The notes: generated by a model not told the origin, from the letters alone. Numbered from the stretch's first letter, positions 7,169 to 59,244 are shown. The stretch is 64,000 nucleotides of DNA from an uncultured Acidobacteriota bacterium (GCA_963734155.1 CAVTGG010000014.1:309841-373840); one strand, 5' to 3'. Made by a program: numbers and translations.

Positions 7169-8605
7169 TTGTCGAAATCCGAGCGCATTCTTTTCTGGTC
7201 GTTGGCGGCAGCCTCGCTCGTGCTGCGCGCGCTCTCGTTTTTTCGCTATCGCTTCGACTCCGACGAGCAGCAGCATCTGCATGTCGCGTGGGCGTGGACG
7301 GACGGGCTCGTGCAGTACCGCGACGTCTTCGACAATCACCTGCCGCTCTTTCATCTGCTGACCGCGCCGCTGGTGGCGCTGTTCGGCGAGCGCGCGGACA
7401 TCCTCCTCTGGATGCGCCTGCCGATGCTCGCGTTGTTCGTGGTCGTGCTTTGGGCGACGTACAAGATTTCCGAGAGCGCGTGGGCGGTGGTGCTGTTGTC
7501 GCTCTTTCCGCCGTTCTTTCTCAAGTCGCTCGAGTTCCGCAACGACAACTTGTGGACGGCGCTCTGGATGCTCGCGATTCTCGGCGTGATGCGGCAATGG
7601 CGGCCGTTCGTGATCGGCCTTCTTCTCGGCGGCGCGTTCGCGGCGTCGATCAAGACCGTCGTGCTGCTGGTCGCGTTCGTGATCGCGTTCCCGAAACAGA
7701 AATGGCTGCAGATCCTCGCCGGCTTCCTCGTCATCCCGGCCGCGCTCGCGATCTACTTCGCGAGCGCCGGCGCGTTGGATGAGCTGCTGTACTGCAACTT
7801 CACCTTCAACGCGCACTTTGCGATGACGCGCAAGGGCCTTTGGGTTCTGCGCGTGCTCTTCCCGATTCTGCTCGCCTGCGTCCTCTGGCTCGCCAAACGT
7901 TTTCGCCCGCATGCGTTCGCGATCCTGATCGCGGTCTACGCGATCACGCTCCTGCCCCTCGGCGTTCCGATCTCGCCCCGCGATTTCCTCCCGCTCATGC
8001 CGCTGCTGGCGATCCTGTTCGCCGCGAATGCCACGCACCTGCAACGAGTGCTCGTTGCCGGCGTCTGCATCCTTGCGCTGTTCAAGTACGCGGACGGGTT
8101 CAAGGATCGAACGGAGTGGCACGTCACGATGCTGCATCAGGCGCTGCGACTCTCGCATCCCGGCGAGCTGCTGATGGACATCAAGGGCGAGACGATCTTT
8201 CGCCGGCGGCCGTTCTACTACGTCTTCGAGAACCTCACCCGCGCGCAGATGGATCGCGGGATCATCCGCGACACCGTGGCCGCGGACGTGATCCGCACGC
8301 GCACACACGTCGCGCAGGCGGACGGGCCGATGTGGCCGCCGCGGGCGCGCGCGTTTCTCAGCGAAAACTTTCTCGACATGGGACGGTTGCGTGCCTCGGG
8401 GCAATGGTTGAAGCCAGATGGCTCGTTCACCATCGCGGTTCCGGGCGAATACGTGATCGTGAGCGAAAACGGGGCAATCGGTCCTGCACGCGAGTACGCG
8501 GCAGGCACGTATCGCATCGCAATCAGAAAGAAGCTCGCGGTGATGTGGGCGCCGGCGTTCCGGCGCGGACACTCACCGTTCCATCTGCGCGATCGCGAGT
8601 TCTAA
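7169..8605 (+). CDS. GT-C fold integral-membrane glycosyltransferase (ArnT/PMT-like)
   Basis: About 11 predicted TM helices. The N-terminal loop with conserved acidic residues (FRYRFDSDEQQHLHVAWAW) is typical of the ArnT / dolichyl-phosphate-mannose transferase family. Confidence 0.55.
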   Translation: MSKSERILFWSLAAASLVLRALSFFRYRFDSDEQQHLHVAWAWTDGLVQYRDVFDNHLPLFHLLTAPLVALFGERADILLWMRLPMLALFVVVLWATYKISESAWAVVLLSLFPPFFLKSLEFRNDNLWTALWMLAILGVMRQWRPFVIGLLLGGAFAASIKTVVLLVAFVIAFPKQKWLQILAGFLVIPAALAIYFASAGALDELLYCNFTFNAHFAMTRKGLWVLRVLFPILLACVLWLAKRFRPHAFAILIAVYAITLLPLGVPISPRDFLPLMPLLAILFAANATHLQRVLVAGVCILALFKYADGFKDRTEWHVTMLHQALRLSHPGELLMDIKGETIFRRRPFYYVFENLTRAQMDRGIIRDTVAADVIRTRTHVAQADGPMWPPRARAFLSENFLDMGRLRASGQWLKPDGSFTIAVPGEYVIVSENGAIGPAREYAAGTYRIAIRKKLAVMWAPAFRRGHSPFHLRDREF

Positions 8606-11076: not shown

Positions 11077-11763
11077 ATGAGAGTGGAACTGGTCGACGCG
11101 ATCTCGAGAGTCAAGTGGGCGGTGTATCCGTTTCTCCTGCGATTCGCGCCGCGGCTGGCGATCGCCGCCCACGAGCCGAAAGCGACCGGCGCGTGGTGGC
11201 GCGCGATCGAGGAAGGGATGATCGTCGTCGACGGCGGCGCGAACCTCGGCGGATACTCGATGCTCGCATCGAAACGCGCCGGCGCGGCGGGGCGCATCTA
11301 CGCGTTCGAGCCGGAGCCGGACAACTTCGCCAAGCTCGTGCGGCGCGTTCGCGCGATGCACAACGTCGTGCCGGTGCAGAAAGCGCTCGGCAGGCAATCC
11401 GGCGAAGCGCAGCTGCACCTCGACCGATTCCACGCGCGCCACTCGCTGACGCGGGACGGTTCCTACACGATCACGGTACCGGTGACGACGCTCGACGATT
11501 TCGTGCGCGATGAAAAGCTGGAAGGCGTCGACGTCATCAAGCTCGACATCGAAGGCGCGGAGCTCGAGGCGATCGCCGGGATGACCGCGGTTCTCACCGC
11601 CGCACGCCGACCTGTCGTTCTATGCGAGCTGCATCCGCCGCTAACTCCGGAACAGTTCCGCGACGCGCTCGCCGTTCACGGATATCGCTGCGAGGTGCTC
11701 GACGCGCAATTCACCGGAGCGGTGCATGATGCACCCGTGCACATCCTGGCCACTCCCGCATGA
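11077..11763 (+). CDS. FkbM-family SAM-dependent methyltransferase
   Basis: It has the Methyltransf_21-type pattern VVDGGANLGGYSMLAS ... IYAFEPEPDNF ... IKLDIEGAE. Confidence 0.7.
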   Translation: MRVELVDAISRVKWAVYPFLLRFAPRLAIAAHEPKATGAWWRAIEEGMIVVDGGANLGGYSMLASKRAGAAGRIYAFEPEPDNFAKLVRRVRAMHNVVPVQKALGRQSGEAQLHLDRFHARHSLTRDGSYTITVPVTTLDDFVRDEKLEGVDVIKLDIEGAELEAIAGMTAVLTAARRPVVLCELHPPLTPEQFRDALAVHGYRCEVLDAQFTGAVHDAPVHILATPA

Positions 11764-12353
11764 ATGACGATCTCGCGCTTCTGATCCGCCAGCTGCGCGG
11801 CGCGTATTCGGGCGAGCTCGCGGCCGGCTACGCGTATCGCGGCCACTGGCACAGCGTCCGCGACGCCGCGGAGCGCGAGCGGATTCAGGTCATCGAACAG
11901 GAGGAGTGGCATCACCGCGAGCTCGTCGGCGGACTGCTCGCGCAGCTCGGCGCGAAGCCGAGCCGCATCCGCGAAGCGATCTTCTTCGTCATCGGAAAAA
12001 CGATCGCCGCGATCTGCCACATCGGCGGGCGCTTCATCCCGATGTACGGGGCCGGAAAGCTCGAGCGCAGCAACATCGTGGAGTACGAAGACGCCGCAAC
12101 GTACGCATCGCGTTGCGGGCACGAAGAGATGATCGAGTGCCTCTTGGCGATGGCGGAGACGGAGTGGGAGCACGAGCGCTACTTCCGCGAGTGCATCGAA
12201 GGGCATCCGCTGCTGCGGGTGTTCAAGTTGTGGGAGCCGCCGCCAGAACCGCGCTGTCGTGCTCGCGTCGGTGCAGATCCCCAATCTTCTCGCGAATCTT
12301 CGCGTCGATCTGATTCGCGGCAAAGTCGCGGGCGACGCGGATCGCGTTCTTGA
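11760..12353 (+). CDS. ferritin-like diiron-carboxylate protein (rubrerythrin/DUF-type)
   Basis: Two ExxH pairs are present (EEWHHRE, ETEWEHERYFRE). The ATG overlaps the upstream stop (ATGA). The 3' 130 nt overlap plsX antisense and may be an artefactual extension. Confidence 0.5.
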   Translation: MNDDLALLIRQLRGAYSGELAAGYAYRGHWHSVRDAAERERIQVIEQEEWHHRELVGGLLAQLGAKPSRIREAIFFVIGKTIAAICHIGGRFIPMYGAGKLERSNIVEYEDAATYASRCGHEEMIECLLAMAETEWEHERYFRECIEGHPLLRVFKLWEPPPEPRCRARVGADPQSSRESSRRSDSRQSRGRRGSRS

Positions 12354-23398: not shown

Positions 23399-24811
23399 CT
23401 AGCGGGCCTCCGGCAGAAGGACTCTCACCCACTCAGAATACTGCTGTCCTGAGGGATGGAGTCCATCGCCGGCGACCAGCGAGGGGTCGTTGCGGCGGGA
23501 AATGGGCGTGATGTCGACCCATTTCGCGCCCGCGCGCCGCGCTTCTTCGCGATTGATGGCGTTGAATTGATCGATCTCGCGGGCGATCTTCGCGCGGTCG
23601 CGCCCTTCCGCGAACGGCGTGACGCCCCAGTCGGGAATCGAGACGACGATCACGTGCTGCGCGTTTCCGCCCGCGAATCCAATCGCGCGCTGCAGCAGTC
23701 CGACGAACTGCGTGCGGTACTCATCCGCGCTGCGCCCGCGGTATTGGTTGTTCACGCCGATCAGCAGCGTGACGAGGTCGTACGGTCCTTTCGGATCCGC
23801 GGCGTCGATGGCGGCGTTGAGCTCGTCCGTCGTCCAGCCGGTCCTGGCGATGATCTGCGGCTCGCCGAGGTTCAGCTGCTTCGCGAGCTGCACCGGAAAG
23901 CGATCCTCGGCGGCAACGCTCTCGCCGATCGTGTACGAATCGCCCAGCGCGAGATAGCGCGTGTCCTTCGAAGGCATCGCCGAGCATGATGTCAGAAGAA
24001 GCACGGCCAGGACCGCGCCGAGGGCGTAGCGGTAGTAGATGAAGATGTGCGTCGTGTGCGTGCGGAGGTAGCGCAGCAGGAACCAGATCGACGCCCAGCC
24101 GGAAACGAACGCGACGACGATCGAGACGAGGATCGGGGTCATGCCGATCGCCGCCAGCGCTTTGCGCTCCGAGACGAGCTCGTACAACCCGGCGGCGGTG
24201 ATCGCGGGGATGCTCATGATGAAGGAGAACCGCGCGGCCTGTTCGTGCGGGATGCGGCGGAAGAGCGCGGTCATGATCGTCGATCCGCTGCGCGACGATC
24301 CCGGAATGAGCGCGATGCACTGTCCGAATCCCATCCACCACGCGTCCTTCGCGTTGAACTCTTCCGGCGCGCGGAATCCGCGCGTGCGCGCGTAACGCTC
24401 CGCCATCTGCATGAGAAACGCGATGAACACGAGCTGAAACGTGACGACCCAGGTGCTGCGAAAGACGCCGTGGATGAGGTCTTTGAGCAGGATGCCGAGG
24501 ACGATGATCGGAATCGTCGCGAAGATGACGTACCAGGCCATGCGCGAGTCGTCGTCGCCGAACGGCTGGCGCGTGATGAGGCCGCGAAAGAACGCGACGG
24601 TCAGGCGCACGATGTCGCGCGCGAAGTAGAGGATGACGGCGACGATGGTCCCGAACTGGATGACCGCCGACGCCGCGGCGCCGGGATCGCCCCATCCGAG
24701 AAGCTCGGGGACGAGTTTGAGATGCCCGGTGGATGAGATCGGAATGAACTCGGTCAGACCCTGCACGAGTCCGAGAACGATCGCTTCGGTAATGGACACT
24801 ACATCTCCCAA
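23399..24811 (-). CDS. uppP: undecaprenyl-diphosphatase (UppP/BacA) fused in-frame to an SGNH/GDSL hydrolase domain
   Basis: The BacA motifs are LTEFIPISSTGHL and PGSSRSGSTI. With no intervening stop, an SGNH domain follows (ALGDSYTIG ... DGLHPS). The junction (LLLTSC) resembles a lipobox. Confidence 0.65.
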   Translation of the reverse strand: MGDVVSITEAIVLGLVQGLTEFIPISSTGHLKLVPELLGWGDPGAAASAVIQFGTIVAVILYFARDIVRLTVAFFRGLITRQPFGDDDSRMAWYVIFATIPIIVLGILLKDLIHGVFRSTWVVTFQLVFIAFLMQMAERYARTRGFRAPEEFNAKDAWWMGFGQCIALIPGSSRSGSTIMTALFRRIPHEQAARFSFIMSIPAITAAGLYELVSERKALAAIGMTPILVSIVVAFVSGWASIWFLLRYLRTHTTHIFIYYRYALGAVLAVLLLTSCSAMPSKDTRYLALGDSYTIGESVAAEDRFPVQLAKQLNLGEPQIIARTGWTTDELNAAIDAADPKGPYDLVTLLIGVNNQYRGRSADEYRTQFVGLLQRAIGFAGGNAQHVIVVSIPDWGVTPFAEGRDRAKIAREIDQFNAINREEARRAGAKWVDITPISRRNDPSLVAGDGLHPSGQQYSEWVRVLLPEAR

Positions 24812-26439
24812 ATGACAGGCAGAATCATCGGCCGCCTGCCCATGCTCTTTCGAAAGTATCGCTTCAGCAGCGCGCGGATTTTTTCCTGCAGCAGGTCGGA
24901 ATCGCGCAGTTCCTCGGCGGGACTTTCGTCAAACATGCCAACGATCATCTGCTGCACTTCGGCGAGGATCTCCTGGCTCGCGTCGACGTGCACCAGTCCG
25001 CGGGTGATGATCTCGGGATCGCGGATCAATCGCCCGTTGCTGTCGACGGCGACGACGGCAATCACGAATCCGTCCTCGGCGAGATGCTGGCGGTCGCGCA
25101 CGACGACTTCCGGCACTTCCTCGGCCTGCGCGTCGATGAACACTTTGCCCTGCGTCACGCGCTCCTCGAGCACGCGAATCGCATCGCCCTCGATCTCCGC
25201 CACCTGCCCGTTCGTGATCACCACGCCGTGCGGCACTCCCACATCCTTCGCCAGCCGCGCGTGATGAATGAGGTGGCGCAACGTGCCGTGCATCGGGATG
25301 AAGAACTTCGGCCGCGTGACGTTCAGCATCAGCTTCAGCTCTTCCTGGCAGGCGTGGCCGGAGACGTGGATGTCGGGCTGCTCGTGATGCACGACGTCTG
25401 CGCCGCGGCGATAGAGGTGATCGATCACGTGCGCGACCGCGCGCTCGTTACCGGGGATCGTGCGCGCGGAGATGATGACGACGTCGCCGCGCTCGATCGC
25501 GACCTGTTTGTGCTCGCCGATGGCCATGCGCGAAAGCGCCGACGACGGCTCGCCCTGCGTGCCGGTGGTGAGGATGACGAGCTCGCGCGGCGCGAGATCG
25601 GCGGAGCCGGCGCGGACTTCGCGCGGAACGCGCAGATACCCGAGGCGCTCCGCGGTCTCGACGTTATCGACGAGCGAGCGCCCGACGAACAGCATCTTGC
25701 GGCGGTGCTTGCGCGCGAGATCGATGATCTGCTGCACGCGATGAATGTGCGACGCGAAGGTCGTGACGATGACGCGCCCGGTCGCGTTCGCGAACAGACG
25801 ATCGAGCGCGGTGCCGACCGTGCGCTCGGACGGACCGTGGCCGGGCACGAGTGCGTTGGTGGAATCGCTGACGAGGAGCAGCACGCCCTCTTCGCCGTAG
25901 TGCGCGAACCGCGCGAGATCGGTCGGCTTGGCGTCGATCGGCGTGTGATCGATCTTGAAGTCGCCGGTGTGAATGATCGTTCCGGCGGGCGTCGTGATCG
26001 CGTATCCGAGCGCGTCGACGATCGAATGCGTGACGCGGATCGCTTCGACGCGGAACGCGCCGGCCTCGACGACGTCGCCGCGCGGCATCGATCGTTTACG
26101 TCATCGCGAGCAGTCTCGATGACGTCCGTCGATGCCGAACTCTTCGAACTTGTCGGCGACGAAGCCGAGCGTCAGCGGCATGCCGTACACCGGCAGCGGC
26201 AACCGCTCGACGAGAAACGGCACCGCGCCGACGTGGTCTTCGTGCCCGTGCGTGAGAAAGAGCGCCTTGATCTTCGACGCGTTGTCGAAGAGGTACGTCA
26301 TGTCGGGCACGATGACGTCGACGCCGAGCGTGGCCGCGTCGGGAAACATCATCCCGCAGTCGACGAGGATGGCTTCATCGCCAACCTCGTAGACCATGAG
26401 GTTCATGCCGATCTCGCCGAGTCCGCCGAATGGGATCAC
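24799..26439 (-). CDS. rnj: ribonuclease J (interrupted by an in-frame TGA at 26101-26103)
   Basis: The N-terminal MBL domain carries HGHEDH. The beta-CASP domain and C-terminus follow in the same frame after a TGA (…GIDGRHRDCSR*RKRSMPRGDVVEAG…). The start is a probable GTG at 26439. Confidence 0.75.
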
Positions 26440-26448
26440 GCGAAGAAC

Positions 26449-26527
26449 GGGTTGCTGGGTTGCTGAGTTGCTGAATTGCTGTGGTCTTCGTCGGTCATGT
26501 GTTCCTAGCGATCTAGCAATTCAGCAA

Positions 26528-26530: not shown

Positions 26531-27821
<1,291 letters not shown>

Positions 27822-27842: not shown

Positions 27843-28545
27843 TCAGGCCAACAGCTCGCGCAGCATGGCCTCGCGGCGATTCATGAAGTCGCGCATGACC
27901 GTGTAGTGCTCGGTTTCCTCGTAGGCGACTTCACGAATTTTCTCGTCGAGCTGATAAATCGTCGCGCCGGGATACGCCATGAGGATCGGCGAGTGCGTGG
28001 CGATGATGAACTGCGATCCCCATCCCGCGAGATCGTGAAGGCGCACGAGCATCGACAACTGCCGCATCGGCGACAGCGCCGCCTCCGGCTCGTCGAGGAT
28101 GTACAGCCCATCGCCGAGAAAGCGATTGAGCAAGCAGCGCCATGAACGACTCGCCATGCGACTGCGCATGCAGCGAAGCGCCGCCGTACCCGCGCGTCAC
28201 GCCAAGACGGTCGATCTCCGTGGCGACGTTGAAGAAGCTCTCCGCTCTCAGAAAGTACCCGTCACTCGGCCATTTTGCTGACCTCATTAGTTTCACGAGC
28301 CGTTCTTCTTCCGCCTCGCGCTTGACCGTCTCGAATTGAAAGTTCTTCGAGCCGCCCTCGGGATTGAACCCCGCCGCCAGTGCGATCGCCTCCACGAGCG
28401 TGGATTTGCCCGAACCGTTCTCGCCGATGAAGAACGTGATTGGGTTCGTGAACTCGAGGGTTTCCGTGCGGCGGATGGCGGGGATGCGGGCGCGATAGTC
28501 GGCGACGGGCTGGAGGAAGGCGGAGCGAACGAACACGGTGTTCAT
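27843..28545 (-). CDS. AAA/ABC-type ATPase (AAA_21-like; apparent frameshift near 28150)
   Basis: The Walker A is FFIGENGSGKST. The Walker B / D-loop YILDEPEAALSP ... IIATHSP is in a second frame. Confidence 0.6.
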
Positions 28546-28550
28546 CGTAC

Positions 28551-28666
28551 GGCGGCGGGACGCCGCCGGGCCAGCCGGCGAGGACGCCGGCGTTCCGAGG
28601 ACAGCGCCGTTAGCGTCGGAGCGCCGGCGTCCTCGCCGGCTGGTCAGGCGGCGTCCCCGCCGCCTC
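28551..28666. repeat. REP doublet (43-bp imperfect inverted repeat built from GCCGGCGAGGACGCCGGC units)
   Basis: The left arm (28551-28592) is approximately the reverse complement of the right arm (28622-28666). It lies immediately 3' of the RAYT gene. Confidence 0.6.
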
Positions 28667-29231
28667 ACCCAACCCACGGCCAGTCTTTCAAACCAGCTTT
28701 GTACGGATTGTCCCAAATGTACTTCTGCGTATCGTGAAACTCCGCCGGCGAACGCACAATTCGATCAAAGTACTCGCGCTGCCAGATGACACCTCGCTTG
28801 ATGCGATGCGCGGTGTACGACTTCCAGGCCTGCACGATGGCCGGTACATCGCGGCCGCGTAACACATGCAGCATGACGTGCACGTGATTCGGCATCACGC
28901 ACCACGCATGAAGCTCGTAGCGCGCACGATCGAAATGCGCGAGCGCATTCGCGACGAGCTCCGCATGGTCACGCAACACGCATGAGCCGCGGCTTTCATC
29001 GAGAAATTGATCGAGGCGAATGCCGAAGAGACGATCGGCTCGCGCACGATCAATGTTCGTCGCGTCGCGCAGCATTCGCTCGCGCTCTTGGTACAGCTGC
29101 TGGGCGATCTCTCGTGGAAGGGAATCGCGGAGGCGGAAGGTGATGAAGTAGACGGACTCGTCGACCTGCCAATGCGGGAGACGGCCGCGCGAGGTGATGG
29201 TGGCGTTGGGGATGAAGTTGTCGTGGCGCAA
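28665..29231 (-). mobile_element. REP-associated tyrosine transposase (RAYT; IS200/IS605 TnpA-like Y1 transposase)
   Basis: The HUH motif is MPNHVHVML and the catalytic Tyr region is WKSYTAHRI. It is flanked on both sides by GCCGGCGAGGACGCCGGC palindromes. Confidence 0.8.
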
Positions 29232-29297
29232 TTTGTCCGGTGAGCCGAGAGGTTGGACGGCAAACGGGACGTGTGGGAGGAGAGAAGAATAGCACGA

Positions 29298-29364
29298 GGC
29301 GGCGAGGACGCCGCCTGATCAGCCGGCGAGGACGCCGGCGCTCCGAAGCTCGTTGGCTTCGGAG
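29298..29364. repeat. REP palindromes (GGCGGCG-AGGA-CGCCGCC, GCCGGCG-AGGA-CGCCGGC) plus hairpin CTCCGAAGC-N6-GCTTCGGAG
   Basis: These are the same unit as 28571-28643. They overlap the last 15 codons of the dynamin-like gene, on the upstream side of the RAYT. Confidence 0.55.
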
Positions 29365-31004
29365 ACGATGCTTGTTAGTTTCGAAGCGAAGCGCTCTACC
29401 TTTTCCGACTCCGCGGCATAGAACCGCTCGTATGGTTCGAAGGCGGACTTGATGTTGCGGAGCATGCGGTCGATTTCGATGGTGCTTTCGCGGTCGAGGG
29501 AGTCGCGGAGTTGGCCGCGCAGCTCCTGGATGCGGCGTTTGAACTCTTCCTTTGCCTTCGAGCGCTTGTACGGGAGGATGAGGAAGCTGGTGACGAGGAG
29601 CATGGTGGCGGCGGTGAGGCCGGTGACGTCGATGGCGGTGCTGGTGACGGCGCTGGTGATCAGGTAGCCGAGTCCGAGGGCGCCGGCGCCGAGGCCGAAG
29701 GAGTGGAGGACGGCGCGCATGGCGTTGTCGATGATGCGGCGGCTCTCGAGGTTCACGTCGTACGCGGCCAGGCGCTGCTCCGCGTTGCGGTGCATCCGGC
29801 CGTACACCTCCTCGCGGTTATAAGCGAACTCGCGTCCGACGTTGTTGATCACTTCCTCGCGCCGCTGGCGCTGGAACGCATCGACCGTCCCATTCCACAG
29901 CTTCATGTTCTCGCGCACCAGCCAGTCCACCGCCTCCTGGATGGTCGTATCGATCGAGCCGCGCCAGCCCATGAACACCTGCCGCTCGAACTCCTCGCGG
30001 AAGCGGCTCGCGTCGCGCAGCATCATCACGTGCTGGATGCGCACGTAGCGATCGAGGAAATCGAGACCGCGGCGCTCGAGGTCCATCAGCAGGTTGTCGA
30101 TGCGGATCACGAACTGCGAGAAATTCGAAACGAGATCGGCGCGCGCGCGCTCGAGCTGATCGTGAATCGTATCGATGTGCGCCTTGTCCGACGACAGCAC
30201 CTGGCGCCGCGACTCGATCATCCGGAACTGCTTCTTCGCCAGCGAGAGAATCGTCTCCAGCGGCGCGGTGAGCTTGATCCGCACGCGCTCTTTCTCCGAC
30301 AGCACGCGGAAGATGTAATCCTCGAGCGCGTCGAAGCGGCTGCGCGTCTTCGTCGACACCGGATAGATCACGGGGTCGAATCCGAAAATCGAACGCGTGT
30401 TCGTGCGCAGGTAGTCGATCACCTGCGCGATCTCGGCGTCGTCTTTCGTGTCGATCTTGTTCAGCACGAATACGACTTTCTTGCCCCACTCGCGGATGTA
30501 TTCGAGGAAGCGCCGTTCCGACTCCGACAGCGGGCGATCGATCGACGTGACGAACAAGACGAGATCGGCGCGCGGGACAAAGTCCTCGGTGATTTCCTGA
30601 TGCCGCTGCACGATCGAGTTCGTGCCCGGCGTGTCGACGAGCGTGATGTTGCGCAGGAACTCGACGGGATAGAACTGCTCGACGACGTAGTCCGATACGC
30701 GCCGCTGCGTCGCTTTCTCGCCGTAACGCAGGACCGAGATGACGTCGTCGACGGGAACCGGTCCCTCGGTGCGCAGCTTTTCGCCGAACAGGGCGTTGAT
30801 CAATGACGACTTGCCGGAGTTGAACTCGCCGACGATGACGATCGTGAAGAGATCCTCGAGCGTGGCGATCAGCTCATCGACGCGGCGGCGGTCGTCGGCC
30901 TGCTCGCGCTCGAGCGTTTCGCGCAGCTCGACCAGGAGGCGTTGCTCGCGGCGGAGCAGCGCCTGCACTTCGGGGTCGAGGACGGAGGCGAAGGTGCCGG
31001 ACAT
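29319..31004 (-). CDS. bacterial dynamin-like GTPase
   Basis: G1 is GEFNSGKSSLINALFG, G3 is DTPG and G4 is NKID. Long helical stalk regions are present. The start was chosen at ATG 31004, and the ORF's N-terminal extension is antisense junk over the kinase gene. Confidence 0.7.
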   Translation of the reverse strand: MSGTFASVLDPEVQALLRREQRLLVELRETLEREQADDRRRVDELIATLEDLFTIVIVGEFNSGKSSLINALFGEKLRTEGPVPVDDVISVLRYGEKATQRRVSDYVVEQFYPVEFLRNITLVDTPGTNSIVQRHQEITEDFVPRADLVLFVTSIDRPLSESERRFLEYIREWGKKVVFVLNKIDTKDDAEIAQVIDYLRTNTRSIFGFDPVIYPVSTKTRSRFDALEDYIFRVLSEKERVRIKLTAPLETILSLAKKQFRMIESRRQVLSSDKAHIDTIHDQLERARADLVSNFSQFVIRIDNLLMDLERRGLDFLDRYVRIQHVMMLRDASRFREEFERQVFMGWRGSIDTTIQEAVDWLVRENMKLWNGTVDAFQRQRREEVINNVGREFAYNREEVYGRMHRNAEQRLAAYDVNLESRRIIDNAMRAVLHSFGLGAGALGLGYLITSAVTSTAIDVTGLTAATMLLVTSFLILPYKRSKAKEEFKRRIQELRGQLRDSLDRESTIEIDRMLRNIKSAFEPYERFYAAESEKVERFASKLTSIVSEANELRSAGVLAG

Positions 31005-55340: not shown

Positions 55341-57050
55341 ATGGTGGTAAATCGGTCCCCCATCTTCAGGTTGATTGTCGCCGCAGTTCTGATCGCGGTC
55401 CCGATGGCGGCGTTCGCAGCGCCCGCCGGGAAAGCGGTCGGCGGCGGTTCGTACATTGAATGGCAGTTGTCGGCCGGATATGAGAAGGTCATTCTCACCA
55501 TTTCCGACCCGACGGGTGAGGTCTCCACGCGTGAGTACGCGGCCGGCAAACCGGTCTCGCTCAGCCTGAAAGACCTGCCGACTGCCGGCGACGGCAGCTA
55601 CACCTATCAGCTGCTGCTCGTGCCGAAGGTTTCGGCGGCGTTGCAGGCGCAGTTGTCGAAGGCGCGCGAAGCCGGAAACGACGCCGCGGCCCGCGCTCTG
55701 CTCCGATCGGCAGGCCTCGCCGAGCCGAATGTGGTGAGCGGCGCGTTCCTCGTCACGAACGGCTCGATCGTCGCGCCGGATCGCGCGGAAGAAGGCATCG
55801 GCGGCGGAACGGTGCAGGCGAACTCGATCCGCGAAGAAGGTCCCGCGAAGCTGGGCGGCGGAACGTCCTCGACGGCTCGCCCGGGCACGCCGGTCGTCAA
55901 CGACCAGGTCATTCCTGACGATCTCATCGTGCAGGGCAGCGGCTGCTTCGGCTTCGACTGCGTGAACAACGAGTCGTTCGGCTTCGACACGATCCGTCTC
56001 AAAGAGAACAACCTCCGCATCAAGGCCGAGGACACGAGCACCGGCAGCTTCCCGACCAACGATTGGCAGCTGACGTTCAACGACTCCGCGAGCGGCGGCT
56101 CCAGCAAGTTCTCGGTGGAAGACATCACCGGATCGCGGGTTCCGTTCACGATCACGGCCGGCGCCGCGACGAACTCGATGTTCGTCGACAGCACGGGCCG
56201 CCTCGGCCTCCGCACCTCCACTCCGGTCCTCGATCTCCACATCAACACCAGCAACACGCCGGCGATCCGCCTCGAGCAGAACAACTCGGGCGGCTTCACG
56301 GCGCAGACCTGGGACATCGGTGCGAACGAAGCGAACTTCTTCGTGCGCGACGTGACCGGCGGCTCGAAGCTCTCGTTCCGCATTCGTCCGGGAGCGCCGA
56401 CGAGCTCGATCGACATCTCCTCGGATGGTGACGTCGGCATCGGTACGGCTTCGCCGAGCGCGGCGCTGCACGTCCTCGACAGCACCAGCGCTGCTTCCGA
56501 TATCGTGCTCGCTGAGAACAACAACGAGGCCCGCATCTCGATCAAGAACAACGGCACGTCTCAGAAGTACATCCTCGGCGTGAACAACACCAACCCGGGT
56601 CTGTTCTTCATCTCGAAGGACGCCGGCGGCGGCACGATCGTCGAAGTCAACCAGCGTCTCGACGGCGGCGGCGTTGCCTCGGTGAAAGTCAACGGCAGCG
56701 TGCAGGCCACGAACGTGGTGTTCAGTTCTTCGCGCGAGCTGAAGAACGAGATCGACCTCGTCGACGGCAAAGAGACGCTTGCGCGTCTGACCGCGATGCC
56801 GATCGCGCACTGGTCGCTCAAGACCGACGAATCCGCGACGAAGCACGTCGGCCCGATGGCCGAGGACTTCTATGCGGCGTTCGGAGTCGGCAGAGACAAC
56901 AAGACCATCTCCGTCACCGACGCGAACGGCGTCGCGTTCTCTGCGATTCAGGGTCTCGCGCAGACTCTGAAGGAGAAGGACGAAGAGCTCACCCAGCTGA
57001 AAGCGCGCATGGCCGAGCTCGAGAAGCTCGTCAAGGCGCAGCAGCAGTAA
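55341..57050 (+). CDS. secreted fibre/beta-helix protein with C-terminal peptidase-S74 intramolecular-chaperone (autoproteolytic tail-fibre chaperone) domain
   Basis: A GGAGGAGG SD and a signal peptide are present. The C-terminal block SSRELKNEIDLVDGKETLARLTAMPIAHWSLKTDESATKHVGPMAEDFYAAFGVG...ELTQLKARMAELEKL is characteristic of the S74 chaperone domain. Confidence 0.65.
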   Translation: MVVNRSPIFRLIVAAVLIAVPMAAFAAPAGKAVGGGSYIEWQLSAGYEKVILTISDPTGEVSTREYAAGKPVSLSLKDLPTAGDGSYTYQLLLVPKVSAALQAQLSKAREAGNDAAARALLRSAGLAEPNVVSGAFLVTNGSIVAPDRAEEGIGGGTVQANSIREEGPAKLGGGTSSTARPGTPVVNDQVIPDDLIVQGSGCFGFDCVNNESFGFDTIRLKENNLRIKAEDTSTGSFPTNDWQLTFNDSASGGSSKFSVEDITGSRVPFTITAGAATNSMFVDSTGRLGLRTSTPVLDLHINTSNTPAIRLEQNNSGGFTAQTWDIGANEANFFVRDVTGGSKLSFRIRPGAPTSSIDISSDGDVGIGTASPSAALHVLDSTSAASDIVLAENNNEARISIKNNGTSQKYILGVNNTNPGLFFISKDAGGGTIVEVNQRLDGGGVASVKVNGSVQATNVVFSSSRELKNEIDLVDGKETLARLTAMPIAHWSLKTDESATKHVGPMAEDFYAAFGVGRDNKTISVTDANGVAFSAIQGLAQTLKEKDEELTQLKARMAELEKLVKAQQQ

Positions 57051-57072
57051 TCGCTCCGTCACGCAACTGAAA

Positions 57073-57102
57073 CGGCCGGCGGAAACGCCGGCCGTTTTTT
57101 TT
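57073..57102 (+). terminator. rho-independent terminator
   Basis: A CGGCCGGCG-GAAA-CGCCGGCCG stem-loop is followed by T8. Confidence 0.7.
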
Positions 57103-57120
57103 GCTATTCTGCGCGCACCG

Positions 57121-59244
57121 TTGCTGCACACCCGGGCCGTTGTCTCTCTCGCCTTTCTGACGCTCCTCCTCGCCTGCCGTCGCTCCGAGCCGGCGTTTGA
57201 TTTCGCCGCGAATTTCGACCAGGCATCGCTGACATCGGAGACCTCGCGCATCGACTTCGGCACAAGCGATGGCCGCCGGTTTCTGCTGGAAGGGTGGTCG
57301 ATCGACGAGACGTGGGGCAATTCCGAAACGACCGCGGTGTGGGGCGTCGGATCGTCGTCACGCCTCTTCTTTCATCACTTCGGAAGCGGCGCCGTCACGC
57401 TCACCTTCCACTGCATTCCGATCTGGTTCGATGCCCGCCAGCAGAGCATTCGCCTCCTCGTGAACGGCACACCGATCGATCGCATCACGCTCGGCGCAGG
57501 CTTCCGCACGTATCAACTGACCGTTCCCCGCGCGGCACTCCGAAAGGGCGCGAACGAGTTGCGCATCGAATACGCGATCACGCAGCAGAATGCGCCGGCC
57601 GGCCGGCAACTCGCGGTGGCCTGGGACTGGATGACGTTCAGCGTCGCGCCGCCAAAAGGCGTCGCGGAGCGCGACGACGACACGATCCGGCTGCCGGCGC
57701 GCACGCAACTCACCTACCTCGCTCCCGTCGCGCCGCGCTGTTCGATCAAGCTCGATCGGATCTACAGCGCGGGCGAAGCCTCGCTGCGGATCGCGATCGG
57801 CCGCTCCGATGCCGTTCCGCCGTCGGTGCACATTCTCGGCAAGCAGCGCGACGTGGAGATCGCGCTGCCGGTCCGCAGAGCCGCGCTGGCGCAAATCGAT
57901 TTCATGACCGGCGATCGCGACGTGAAACTCATCCGTCCCCGCATCGAATGCGAGAACGCCGCCGTCCCGCCGGCTGGTCCGGCGCCGTCCCGGCGCCGCC
58001 CAAATGTCCTGATCTACCTCGTCGACACCCTGCGCGCCGATCACCTCGGCGTCTACGGATACGCACGCCCGACTTCTCCGCACATCGACGCCTTCGCGCG
58101 CGACTCCGTCGTCTTCACCAGCGCCATCGCCCAATCGGGGTGGACCAAGACCTCCGTCGCGTCGATCCTCACCGGGCTCGTGCCGTTTCATCACGGCACC
58201 ATCGACCGCGACGACGCGCTTCCACCGTCGATTCCCACGCTGCCGATGATGCTCGCGCGCGCCGGCTACGCGCGCTACGCGGCCATCGCCAACGGCAATC
58301 TCAGCCCCGCGTTCGGGCTGCAACGCGGATTCGAGCCGTATCGCTATCTTGCGTCCGGCGAATACGAAGCCGGAGCCGTCGCCGGCGTGGTCGTCGACGC
58401 GTGGCAGCAGTGGCTCGACACGCGCCGCGGCGCAGAGCCGTGGTTCGCGTACCTGCACACGATCGACCCGCACGATCCGTATCACGCGCCGGAGCCGTTC
58501 ACGAGCCGCAGCACGATCCCGATCACCGGCGTCGGCGAGATCCCCGCGTTTCTGCAAACGCATCACGGCGTGAGCGCCGAACAGTTAGGCGCGGACCTCA
58601 TCGACAAATACGACGCCGAGATCGTCTACACCGACGCCATGTTCGGCCGCGCCATCGAGGATCTGAAGCGCCGCGGTCTCTACGACGAGACGCTCATCCT
58701 CTTCGCCTCGGACCACGGCGAGGAGTTTCTCGATCACGGCGGCTGGGGACACGGCCATTCGCTCTATCGCGAGCTCCTGCACGTACCGCTGATCGTGAAG
58801 TTTCCCCGCAATCGCCACGCGGGGATGATCGTGAAGACGAACGTGCAGCACGTCGACATCGTGCCGACGGTGCTGCAAGCCGCGGGAGTGGCGATTCCGA
58901 AGAACCTCGACGGCATGCCGCTGATGGAGGTCCCGGGCGCAGCCGAGCGCCGGATCGCGTCGTACCTGCGCATGGATCGGCACGACGTCATGAGCGTGAT
59001 CTACGGCGAGCGGCAGTATCTCGTGAATTCGACGTTCGGAACGCCGGTGGAATCGCTGCTGCGTTTCGCGCCGTCGAGCACGGACCGCGAGCGGATCTAT
59101 CTCGCGCAGACCGACGTGTGGCGAAAGGACCTTCGGCGGACGCTCGTGCGTCTGCGGCAAGAGTCGCGGCGCGTCGCCGCGCCGCAGGTGCCGCTCGAAG
59201 GCGAGCTCGCAAAGCAGCTGCGCGCACTCGGCTATTTGCGCTGA
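57121..59244 (+). CDS. sulfatase-family (alkaline-phosphatase superfamily) lipoprotein
   Basis: There is a lipobox (LLLAC). The sulfatase core is NVLIYLVDTLRADHLG ... LILFASDHGEEF ... GWGHGHSLYRE. Confidence 0.8.
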   Translation: MLHTRAVVSLAFLTLLLACRRSEPAFDFAANFDQASLTSETSRIDFGTSDGRRFLLEGWSIDETWGNSETTAVWGVGSSSRLFFHHFGSGAVTLTFHCIPIWFDARQQSIRLLVNGTPIDRITLGAGFRTYQLTVPRAALRKGANELRIEYAITQQNAPAGRQLAVAWDWMTFSVAPPKGVAERDDDTIRLPARTQLTYLAPVAPRCSIKLDRIYSAGEASLRIAIGRSDAVPPSVHILGKQRDVEIALPVRRAALAQIDFMTGDRDVKLIRPRIECENAAVPPAGPAPSRRRPNVLIYLVDTLRADHLGVYGYARPTSPHIDAFARDSVVFTSAIAQSGWTKTSVASILTGLVPFHHGTIDRDDALPPSIPTLPMMLARAGYARYAAIANGNLSPAFGLQRGFEPYRYLASGEYEAGAVAGVVVDAWQQWLDTRRGAEPWFAYLHTIDPHDPYHAPEPFTSRSTIPITGVGEIPAFLQTHHGVSAEQLGADLIDKYDAEIVYTDAMFGRAIEDLKRRGLYDETLILFASDHGEEFLDHGGWGHGHSLYRELLHVPLIVKFPRNRHAGMIVKTNVQHVDIVPTVLQAAGVAIPKNLDGMPLMEVPGAAERRIASYLRMDRHDVMSVIYGERQYLVNSTFGTPVESLLRFAPSSTDRERIYLAQTDVWRKDLRRTLVRLRQESRRVAAPQVPLEGELAKQLRALGYLR

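Follow-up and report, generated by a model that had tools for sequence, protein, structure and literature searches.

REP-associated tyrosine transposases (RAYTs) and the repetitive extragenic palindromes (REPs) that accompany them, together called REPtrons, are already well known. In Escherichia coli K-12 the nuclease TnpA_REP (RayT/YafM; PDB 4ER8) is encoded by a single-copy gene with inverted flanking REPs, or bacterial interspersed mosaic elements (BIMEs), in which a short conserved head lies 5' of the hairpin foot. The REPIN-RAYT system of Pseudomonas fluorescens (Bertels and Rainey), where REP doublets form hairpins (REPINs), and the domesticated RAYTs of Bertels et al. (2017) are single-copy, syntenic and vertically inherited, and PMC5581495 likewise describes RAYTs as stable and vertically inherited. 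Among the TnpA_Y1 proteins, class 2 is defined by a Y-x3-NP signature (PMC6006769), and its subclasses 2.7 and 2.4 (Quentin et al., 2018) are known mainly from Cyanobacteria and Bacteroidetes, where their genes are flanked by REPs with GT[AG]G heads. REPs at the ends of open reading frames (ORFs) and inside them have also been documented (PMC3733652). Here I describe a locus of this kind in a 64-kb stretch of DNA (the window) from an uncultured Acidobacteriota bacterium (GCA_963734155.1 CAVTGG010000014.1:309841-373840), probably of the Thermoanaerobaculia, in which a 188-residue RAYT-like protein is encoded among GC-rich palindromes around positions 28,551 to 29,364.

The lineage is little studied, and RAYT/REP systems have not been characterised in it. 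I consider it very probable that the locus is a REPtron, that is, a single-copy and chromosomally fixed RAYT of the class 2 TnpA_REP type (an HUH/Y1 single-stranded DNA nuclease) together with its cognate REP family. This extends the range of RAYT/REP systems to Thermoanaerobaculia-type Acidobacteriota, which are known here mostly from soil metagenomes, and leaves the established picture of RAYT biology unchanged.

The nuclease and its family

The RAYT ORF is intact and encodes all catalytic residues. The original prediction had called its product an HUH-Y1 RAYT, and this identification holds. The protein passes Pfam PF01797 (Y1_Tnp) with 33.9 bits against a cut-off of 23, and a phmmer search of PDB places E. 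coli TnpA_REP first (4ER8, E=1e-6), with ISDra2 at E=0.33. An AlphaFold model (pLDDT 78.8) finds the same structure as its top Foldseek match (4er8_A, E=1.2e-8, TM 0.68, root-mean-square deviation 3.0), whereas TnpA proteins of IS200/IS605 insertion sequences (IS) reach a TM of 0.52 at most. The HUH motif is H116-V-H118 and the tyrosine at the catalytic position is Y171, in QKYIWDNP. The Y1 tyrosine had previously been sought in SYTAHRI, a misassignment, because Y139 in that motif is F or W in some homologues and sits at a non-catalytic position, whereas Y171 aligns with the catalytic Y115 of TnpA_REP.

Seven residues do not vary among 27 homologues (H116, H118, Y171, N175, P176, W150 and R160). 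H116, H118, Y171, N175, W150 and R160 align with H59, H61, Y115, N119, W94 and R104 of E. coli TnpA_REP, and W150, Q151, R160, D156 and R157 stand at guide-contact positions of that enzyme (roles of its residues are from PMC3479197 and PMC6006769). The two proteins thus have in common the HUH/Y1 fold, the Y-x3-NP signature with an asparagine four residues after the tyrosine, and the W-Q/Arg guide contacts. They differ in that they are only about 20% identical, that E. coli H123 is alanine here, and that the window protein has about 45 extra residues, which are modelled as two helices (40-79) that follow strand 1 and precede helix A.

The signature of the window protein (Y171-IWD-N175-P176) is not the Y-x3-Q of IS200, and class 2 is also where its motifs belong (the set NHVH / WQ / YI-x-x-NP, together with D156 and R157). 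By motif comparison it appears closest to subclass 2.7 (or 2.4), with which it has this set and the changes E100->D and H101->R in common, as well as the REPtron-like arrangement of its gene. Hidden Markov models, sequence and fold all support its membership with TnpA_REP and the RAYTs rather than with IS200/IS605, and by analogy with the E. coli enzyme I infer that it is a nuclease. The protein family comprises 834 matches at E<=1e-5, including one at 100% identity, and many members are labelled RayT (JGI) or 'transposase [Thermoanaerobaculia bacterium]' (NCBI).

Anatomy of the REP unit

An 18-bp palindrome had been proposed to bracket the gene as its cognate repeat, with an imperfect inverted doublet on one side. 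The bracketing is borne out. The 18-mer GCCGGCGAGGACGCCGGC occurs exactly at 28574-28591 (+), 28623-28640 (-) and 29322-29339 (+), its only three copies in the window, with variants (GGCGGCG..CGCCGCC) at 29298-29315 and 28647-28664. When up to three mismatches are allowed there are 9 matches against 0.84 expected, a number that 0/100 shuffles reach; the clustering is real and far beyond chance. An inverted repeat (28612-28666 / 29296-29350, 55-nt arms, 95%) brackets the ORF, and the doublet is also as described, with 42-nt arms (28557-28598 / 28616-28657) that are 93% complementary across a 17-nt gap.

The palindrome itself, however, is not the repeat unit. Alignment of the three copies defines a larger element of about 52 nt, which consists of a head, CGGA(G/A)C, a hairpin B, GCCGGCG-TCCT-CGCCGGC, with a 7-bp GC stem, a 6-nt spacer, TGRYCN, and a hairpin A, GGCGGCG-TCCY-CGCCGCC, with a GC stem of 7-8 bp. 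In the sense of the ORF the order is head-B-A, about 65 nt, the ORF, A'-B'-head', and then another head-B-A. One unit thus stands on each side of the RAYT, inverted and with the head outward, and the stems are perfect in all three flanking units. The unit directly 3' of the gene (unit 2) adjoins its stop codon (28665-28667). With its inverted partner (unit 1) it forms a REPIN (28549-28666), an inverted REP pair with a short gap that folds as a single long hairpin (-70 to -73 kcal/mol, z -10 to -14), and the REPIN ends 4 nt from the ATG of a neighbouring AAA ATPase gene.

An inverted doublet that gives one long hairpin is also found in P. fluorescens, but each REP arm here contains two hairpins. 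The REPs of E. coli, for their part, are long bulged hairpins, whereas the hairpins at this locus are short, have perfect 7-bp GC stems and come two to a unit in direct orientation. A covariance model of the unit, R1, was built from 65 units, and a scan of the window with filters off found four, of which three are those at the locus (60-67 bits) and the fourth is at 57949-57999 (52 bits); the best of the remaining matches scored 16 bits.

The REPIN was also considered as a known RNA family and rejected as such. Rfam gave only sub-threshold matches to plant and animal microRNA precursor families at 28547-28668, which were judged to be chance (MIR1846, for example, scores 40.6 bits against a gathering score of 77.5). 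GC-rich long hairpins such as this one are likely to be annotated falsely in this way, and the REP family explains strong hairpins that are able to break assemblies or to pass for terminators or small RNAs.

Related loci: association, covariation and dispersal

The locus was compared with two loci found by exact protein, 80 from metagenomes and L206, the closest relative. RAYT flanks are significantly inverted-complementary in 61 of the 78 metagenomic loci with enough flank, and the flank segment that they have in common is a head plus one or more GC hairpins. Homologues at 40-79% identity keep the arrangement, with compensatory changes in the stems. Along with the inverted, head-outward units of the window, this upholds the earlier view of the locus as a classical RAYT/REP arrangement.

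Across loci, R1 identifies 100 units in 81 sources. Stem cells are paired in 96.4% of cases, and double (compensatory) changes occur in 13 of 14 pairs. The covariation score is 0.311, compared with 0.095 in shuffles (0/500 reach the observed value) and at most 0.053 with partners slid, on an alignment that is model-fitted and so leans towards the structure. Some stem variants are visible by eye: GCCGCCG/CGGCGGC, GCCGACG/CGTCGGC, GGGGGCG/CGCCCCC and GCGGGCG/CGCCCGC. This covariation is consistent with recognition of the hairpin by the nuclease. The cognate element is thereby defined with covariation support, and R1 can be used to annotate such repeats in metagenome-assembled genomes (MAGs).

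If it acts as TnpA_REP of E. coli does, the enzyme would recognise a folded hairpin with its head where DNA is single-stranded, as at a replication fork, and would cut and rejoin it through Y171 and a metal site at H116/H118. REP or REPIN units would be moved or copied in this way while the RAYT gene stayed put, and the units may still be mobile today.

Repeat and gene are closely associated. In loci whose RAYT is at least 50% identical, a unit lies within 300 nt of the gene in 14/14, and these same loci contain 33 units in the 7.8 kb near the RAYT against 15 in the 198 kb away from it. Distal units in close relatives occur about once per 13 kb, often as inverted pairs, and they stand at convergent or co-directional gene ends (for example L002 19201-19391, L131 5595-5704 and L203 3002-3052). 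L040 and L099 are examples of loci that have REP units but no RAYT in the vicinity. Such dispersal in relatives is a trait in common with the REPIN-RAYT systems of P. fluorescens, from which the present system differs in phylum and in repeat density, which is much lower in the sequence sampled here. Evidence from relatives thus favours a genuine dispersed REP family; the REP population of the source genome could itself be small or decaying.

One of these relatives, L131, whose RAYT is 54% identical, also has a tandem array at 11484-12061, with four direct REP units at a spacing of about 162-182 nt and weaker inverted units between them. It lies 3.8-4.3 kb from the RAYT and is clustered, not dispersed.

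A scan of genome contigs for the palindrome listed at least 120 matches, the source genome not among them. Most of the matches listed are single and chance-like, within coding sequence of high-GC genomes unrelated to this one, and for none of those listed do the fetched stretches (<=8 kb) show a RAYT homologue near the palindrome. REP-like copies, with the palindrome followed by a GCTCC or GCTAC tail, nevertheless appear in several phyla among these matches, which suggests related REP families across phyla. Those with a GCTCC(A/C) tail (L028, L079, L097, L098, L102 and L061) are intergenic and often paired or multi-copy, and their genomes include Akkermansia, Sumerlaeota, Vicinamibacteraceae, other Acidobacteria and Terricaulis.

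Inheritance and alternative interpretations

The gene order dagk-dyn-RAYT-asnS-rnj-bacA is common to the window and to L001, L123 and L125, and RAYT-asnS-rnj-bacA is kept in L002. In L131-L133 the RAYT is again between dagk and asnS, but it is inverted and dyn is absent; inversion across head-outward inverted REP units would explain this orientation. With the exceptions of L206, L126 and L129, RAYTs at 50-100% identity have retained dagk-(dyn)-RAYT-asnS-rnj as their neighbourhood. On these comparisons the RAYT appears to be stable and vertically inherited overall, which is not insertion-sequence behaviour.

Several observations weigh against interpreting the locus as a REPtron. The best NCBIfam model for the RAYT, REP_Tyr_transpos (NF047646), scores 71.4 bits and so misses its equivalog cut-off of 80, because the match spans residues 83-186 only and leaves the N-terminal half with the helical insert uncovered. 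The head is GGAG/GGAA and not the canonical GT[AG]G. No further exact 18-mer occurs in the 64 kb outside the RAYT locus, and the sole distal unit of the window (57949-57999) is diverged and intragenic. L206, at 78% identity, has one unit per side of the RAYT as in the window, but its neighbour genes differ, so the whole cassette has undergone some movement or transfer and is not completely immobile. Finally, genes close to the RAYT carry indel lesions, and small assembly errors are thus possible.

Two of these observations, the restriction of the exact palindrome to the locus and the decay of the only distal unit, fixed as it is inside a gene, would fit a relic whose repeats survive essentially as its own terminal inverted repeats (TIRs), with a REP population that became extinct or never expanded here. 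RAYT-like genes that have TIRs but hardly any dispersed repeats, or none, have indeed been described, for example the TIRYTs (PMC3733652; PMC6006769). A relic would nevertheless not be expected to combine an intact ORF and all its catalytic residues with perfect stems in three flanking units. Moreover, close relatives possess intact distal units and REPIN pairs, and the flanking repeat is built of head-and-hairpin REP units, not of an unrelated TIR. I regard a relic as unlikely, if the most credible of the alternatives.

The different neighbourhood of L206, the compactness of a cassette that ends in hairpins and measures about 800 bp between its heads, and the HUH/Y1 fold could also point to an autonomous insertion sequence of the IS200/IS605 type, such as IS608 or ISDra2, in which the gene and its hairpin ends transpose as one unit. 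These elements have the superfamily fold and the logic of single-strand hairpin recognition in common with the present system. They are, however, dimeric, multi-copy elements with a Y-x3-Q signature, non-inverted subterminal hairpins and often a tnpB gene, and none of these features is seen here. The window has a single RAYT copy and no tnpB, the signature is Y-x3-NP, the IS200 model NF033573 gives only 20.8 bits against a cut-off of 55, and the ends are inverted repeats. Furthermore, chromosomal position is conserved over the range of 50-100% identity, and units also occur alone, away from any transposase gene. An insertion sequence is thus a very improbable explanation.

REP sequence in coding regions

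The REP family was also predicted to contribute coding sequence, and it does so in two genes. The first encodes the dynamin-like GTPase upstream of the RAYT, whose ORF ends in ...SEANELRSAGVLAG. In the orthologue of L125 the gene ends GAG ATC CTG TCG CAA ATC TAA, followed directly by CGGAAC and hairpin B, whereas in the window GAG CTT is followed directly by CGGAGC and hairpin B. The ancestral last five or so codons and the stop are missing from the window gene, which continues through head and hairpin B as far as a TGA in the spacer TGATCA. From this TGA it is 3 nt to hairpin A, which is hence 3' of the stop and non-coding. A deletion at the junction, or re-insertion, very probably removed the native stop.

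The original prediction that REP sequence encodes the last 14-15 residues of this protein is therefore right in part: RSAGVLAG and the stop are REP-derived, but the preceding SEANEL is native coding sequence (cf. QEAREI and TEAREI in orthologues) and the outer palindrome lies beyond the stop. The further hairpin noted at this end has a perfect stem, in which the REP head and 4 nt (GCTT) pair with native dynamin-like codons (CTCCGAAGC). The native arm holds CTCCGA, the reverse complement of the head. Chance, junction microhomology or a target preference may have given rise to this hairpin. It was also considered as a decayed inverted partner unit, which was rejected, as its 5' arm corresponds to the native codons of orthologues and R1 has no match there.

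Folded as RNA, the 3' end of the dynamin-like gene forms three stem-loops (-51.6 kcal/mol, z -6.3), and these stable structures stand at the mRNA end because the ORF now stops in the REP spacer. Effects of REPs on mRNA stability or translation termination are plausible from the E. coli literature, and by analogy the hairpins may influence the stability or translation of this mRNA. Such folding, and the position of GC-rich stem-loops at gene ends, is also what would be expected if the palindromes were ordinary terminators or attenuators of neighbouring genes, unrelated to the nuclease. There are no T-runs, however, and a terminator scan of 28300-29600 found no intrinsic terminator. The 52-nt sequence with its conserved head recurs inverted on both sides of the gene and across distant homologues, one copy is inside a coding region, and the true terminator of the window (57070-57105) looks different. 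I consider this last explanation scarcely credible next to that of REP units cognate to the RAYT.

The second gene encodes a sulfatase (57121-59244, +), 28.7 kb from the RAYT, and holds the fourth unit in frame in its linker (…ENAAVPPAGPAPSRRR…; …RIECENAAVPPAGPAPSRRRPNVLIYLVDTLRAD…). This unit is decayed, with one stem mismatch and a degenerate head, GAGAAC. In an 88% orthologue from a Thermoanaerobaculia MAG (L205) a unit stands at the equivalent site (8019-8069), with damage to hairpin A but none to hairpin B, opposite to the state of the window unit. No REP unit was found at this linker in a 55% orthologue (L203/L204). A net insertion was rejected: linker length equals that of homologues, which leaves replacement in a hypervariable linker or insertion with compensating loss. 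These comparisons point to an old insertion or replacement, decaying independently in two lineages, and an older unit would thus have become fixed in frame.

Both overlaps with coding sequence fit the pattern of gene-end and intragenic REPs of Di Nocera et al. (2013; PMC3733652), from which the dynamin-like gene differs in having exchanged its native stop for one within a REP unit, in the spacer that separates hairpin B from hairpin A. The overlaps explain the odd C-terminus of the dynamin-like GTPase and the Pro/Ala/Gly-rich sulfatase linker.

Close to the sulfatase gene, and 3' of an ORF ending at 57050, is an intrinsic terminator at 57070-57105 (+), GGCCGGCG-GAAA-CGCCGGCC followed by T8. 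It resembles the REP hairpin in sequence but was rejected as a REP unit, being T-tailed and scoring 16 bits with R1.

The head sequence

CGGAGC or CGGAAC is the head in the window, and every locus with a RAYT of 54% identity or more agrees, apart from L132. That locus and the more distant homologues have GTAGC. The conserved head occupies the equivalent position at the hairpin foot, with G instead of T as its second base. The GGA(G/A) (GGAR) heads of this group thus differ from the GTAG of E. coli REPs and the GT[AG]G of subclasses 2.7 and 2.4. The switch from GTAG to GGAR tracks RAYT phylogeny. Four protein positions divide the GGAR from the GTAG groups, including F/Y155 beside D156 and R157, a division confounded by phylogeny.

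These observations can be joined, with considerable doubt, into one scenario in which the clade altered the rules of its REPs through a double hairpin, a head switch, inversion of the cassette and repeated rewriting of proteins. As parts of this scenario, the mobilised unit might, tentatively, be an obligate direct double hairpin with a head on the first hairpin only. As the clade arose, its guide-like head could have changed from GTAG to GGA(G/A), coincident with substitutions near the guide contacts (F155 vs Y155), a possibility I hold with some reserve. It is likewise speculative that, in some lineages, head-outward units turned round the whole RAYT cassette that lies between dagk and asnS, and somewhat doubtful that units repeatedly rewrote protein ends and linkers. 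If true, the head switch would show, as a natural experiment, how HUH/Y1 nucleases come to re-programme their DNA specificity, and it offers a modest, testable handle on how RAYT nucleases read their guide sequence.

Locus layout and neighbouring genes

The genes around the RAYT are all on the minus strand (Table 1). Some of them have lesions. In asnS the frame switches at about 27536, with residues 1-95 in frame -3 and 96-430 in frame -1 relative to the L001 orthologue, so that either the assembly is wrong by 1 nt or this gene, an essential one, is a pseudogene. In rnj, about 13 codons are out of frame at about 26089-26127 (GRHRDCSR*RKRS vs DIEL..RAI), with an in-frame TGA at 26101-26103, in what looks like a compensated pair of indels.

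The AAA ATPase gene, between the REPIN and asnS, is broken into two frames near 28135-28170. It was considered as a component of the RAYT/REP system and rejected, because no counterpart is present in any related RAYT locus. Its distribution suggests a lineage-specific insertion beside the REP doublet, possibly now a pseudogene.

Table 1. Positions of the REP units, their parts and the surrounding genes in the window.
Feature	Position	Strand	Evidence
REP unit 3, 5' of the RAYT	29296-29348	-	R1 60.1 bits; arm of the 55-nt inverted repeat
Parts of unit 3	head CGGAGC 29345-29340, hairpin B 29339-29322, spacer TGATCA 29321-29316, hairpin A 29315-29298	-	
REP unit 2, directly 3' of the RAYT, inverted relative to unit 3	28614-28666	+	R1 60.0 bits
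Parts of unit 2	head CGGAGC 28617-28622, hairpin B 28623-28640, spacer TGGTCA, hairpin A 28647-28664	+	
REP unit 1, inverted partner of unit 2	28549-28600	-	R1 67.3 bits
Fourth REP unit, diverged	57949-57999	+	R1 52.2 bits, E=1.4e-7
REP-derived 3' end of dynamin-like gene, codons R-S-A-G-V-L-A-G + TGA	29319-29345	-	DNA alignment of window, L001, L123 and L125
Extra 9-bp hairpin (CTCCGAAGC / GCTTCGGAG)	29341-29364	-	folding
Dynamin-like GTPase gene	stop 29319-29321	-	Dynamin_N 87.8 bits
RAYT (TnpA_REP-like HUH/Y1 nuclease), 188 aa, TTG start	28665-29231	-	Pfam Y1_Tnp
TGnTAnnnT (TGCTATTCT), then CCCACAC; between hairpin A and RAYT start	29286-29294	-	conservation
AAA_21/AAA_15/AAA_23 ATPase gene	27843-28547, ATG at 28547	-	domain matches
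asnS (asparaginyl-tRNA synthetase)	26531-27821	-	ORF and L001 orthologue
rnj (RNase J)	24802-26481	-	ORF

A simple scan of 28300-29600 found no consensus sigma-70 promoter. Upstream of the RAYT start, however, the motif TGnTAnnnT is found at the equivalent place in the window, L001, L123, L125, L126 and L206, with GGTAnnnT in L128-L133, and this conserved motif may be an extended -10 promoter of the RAYT.

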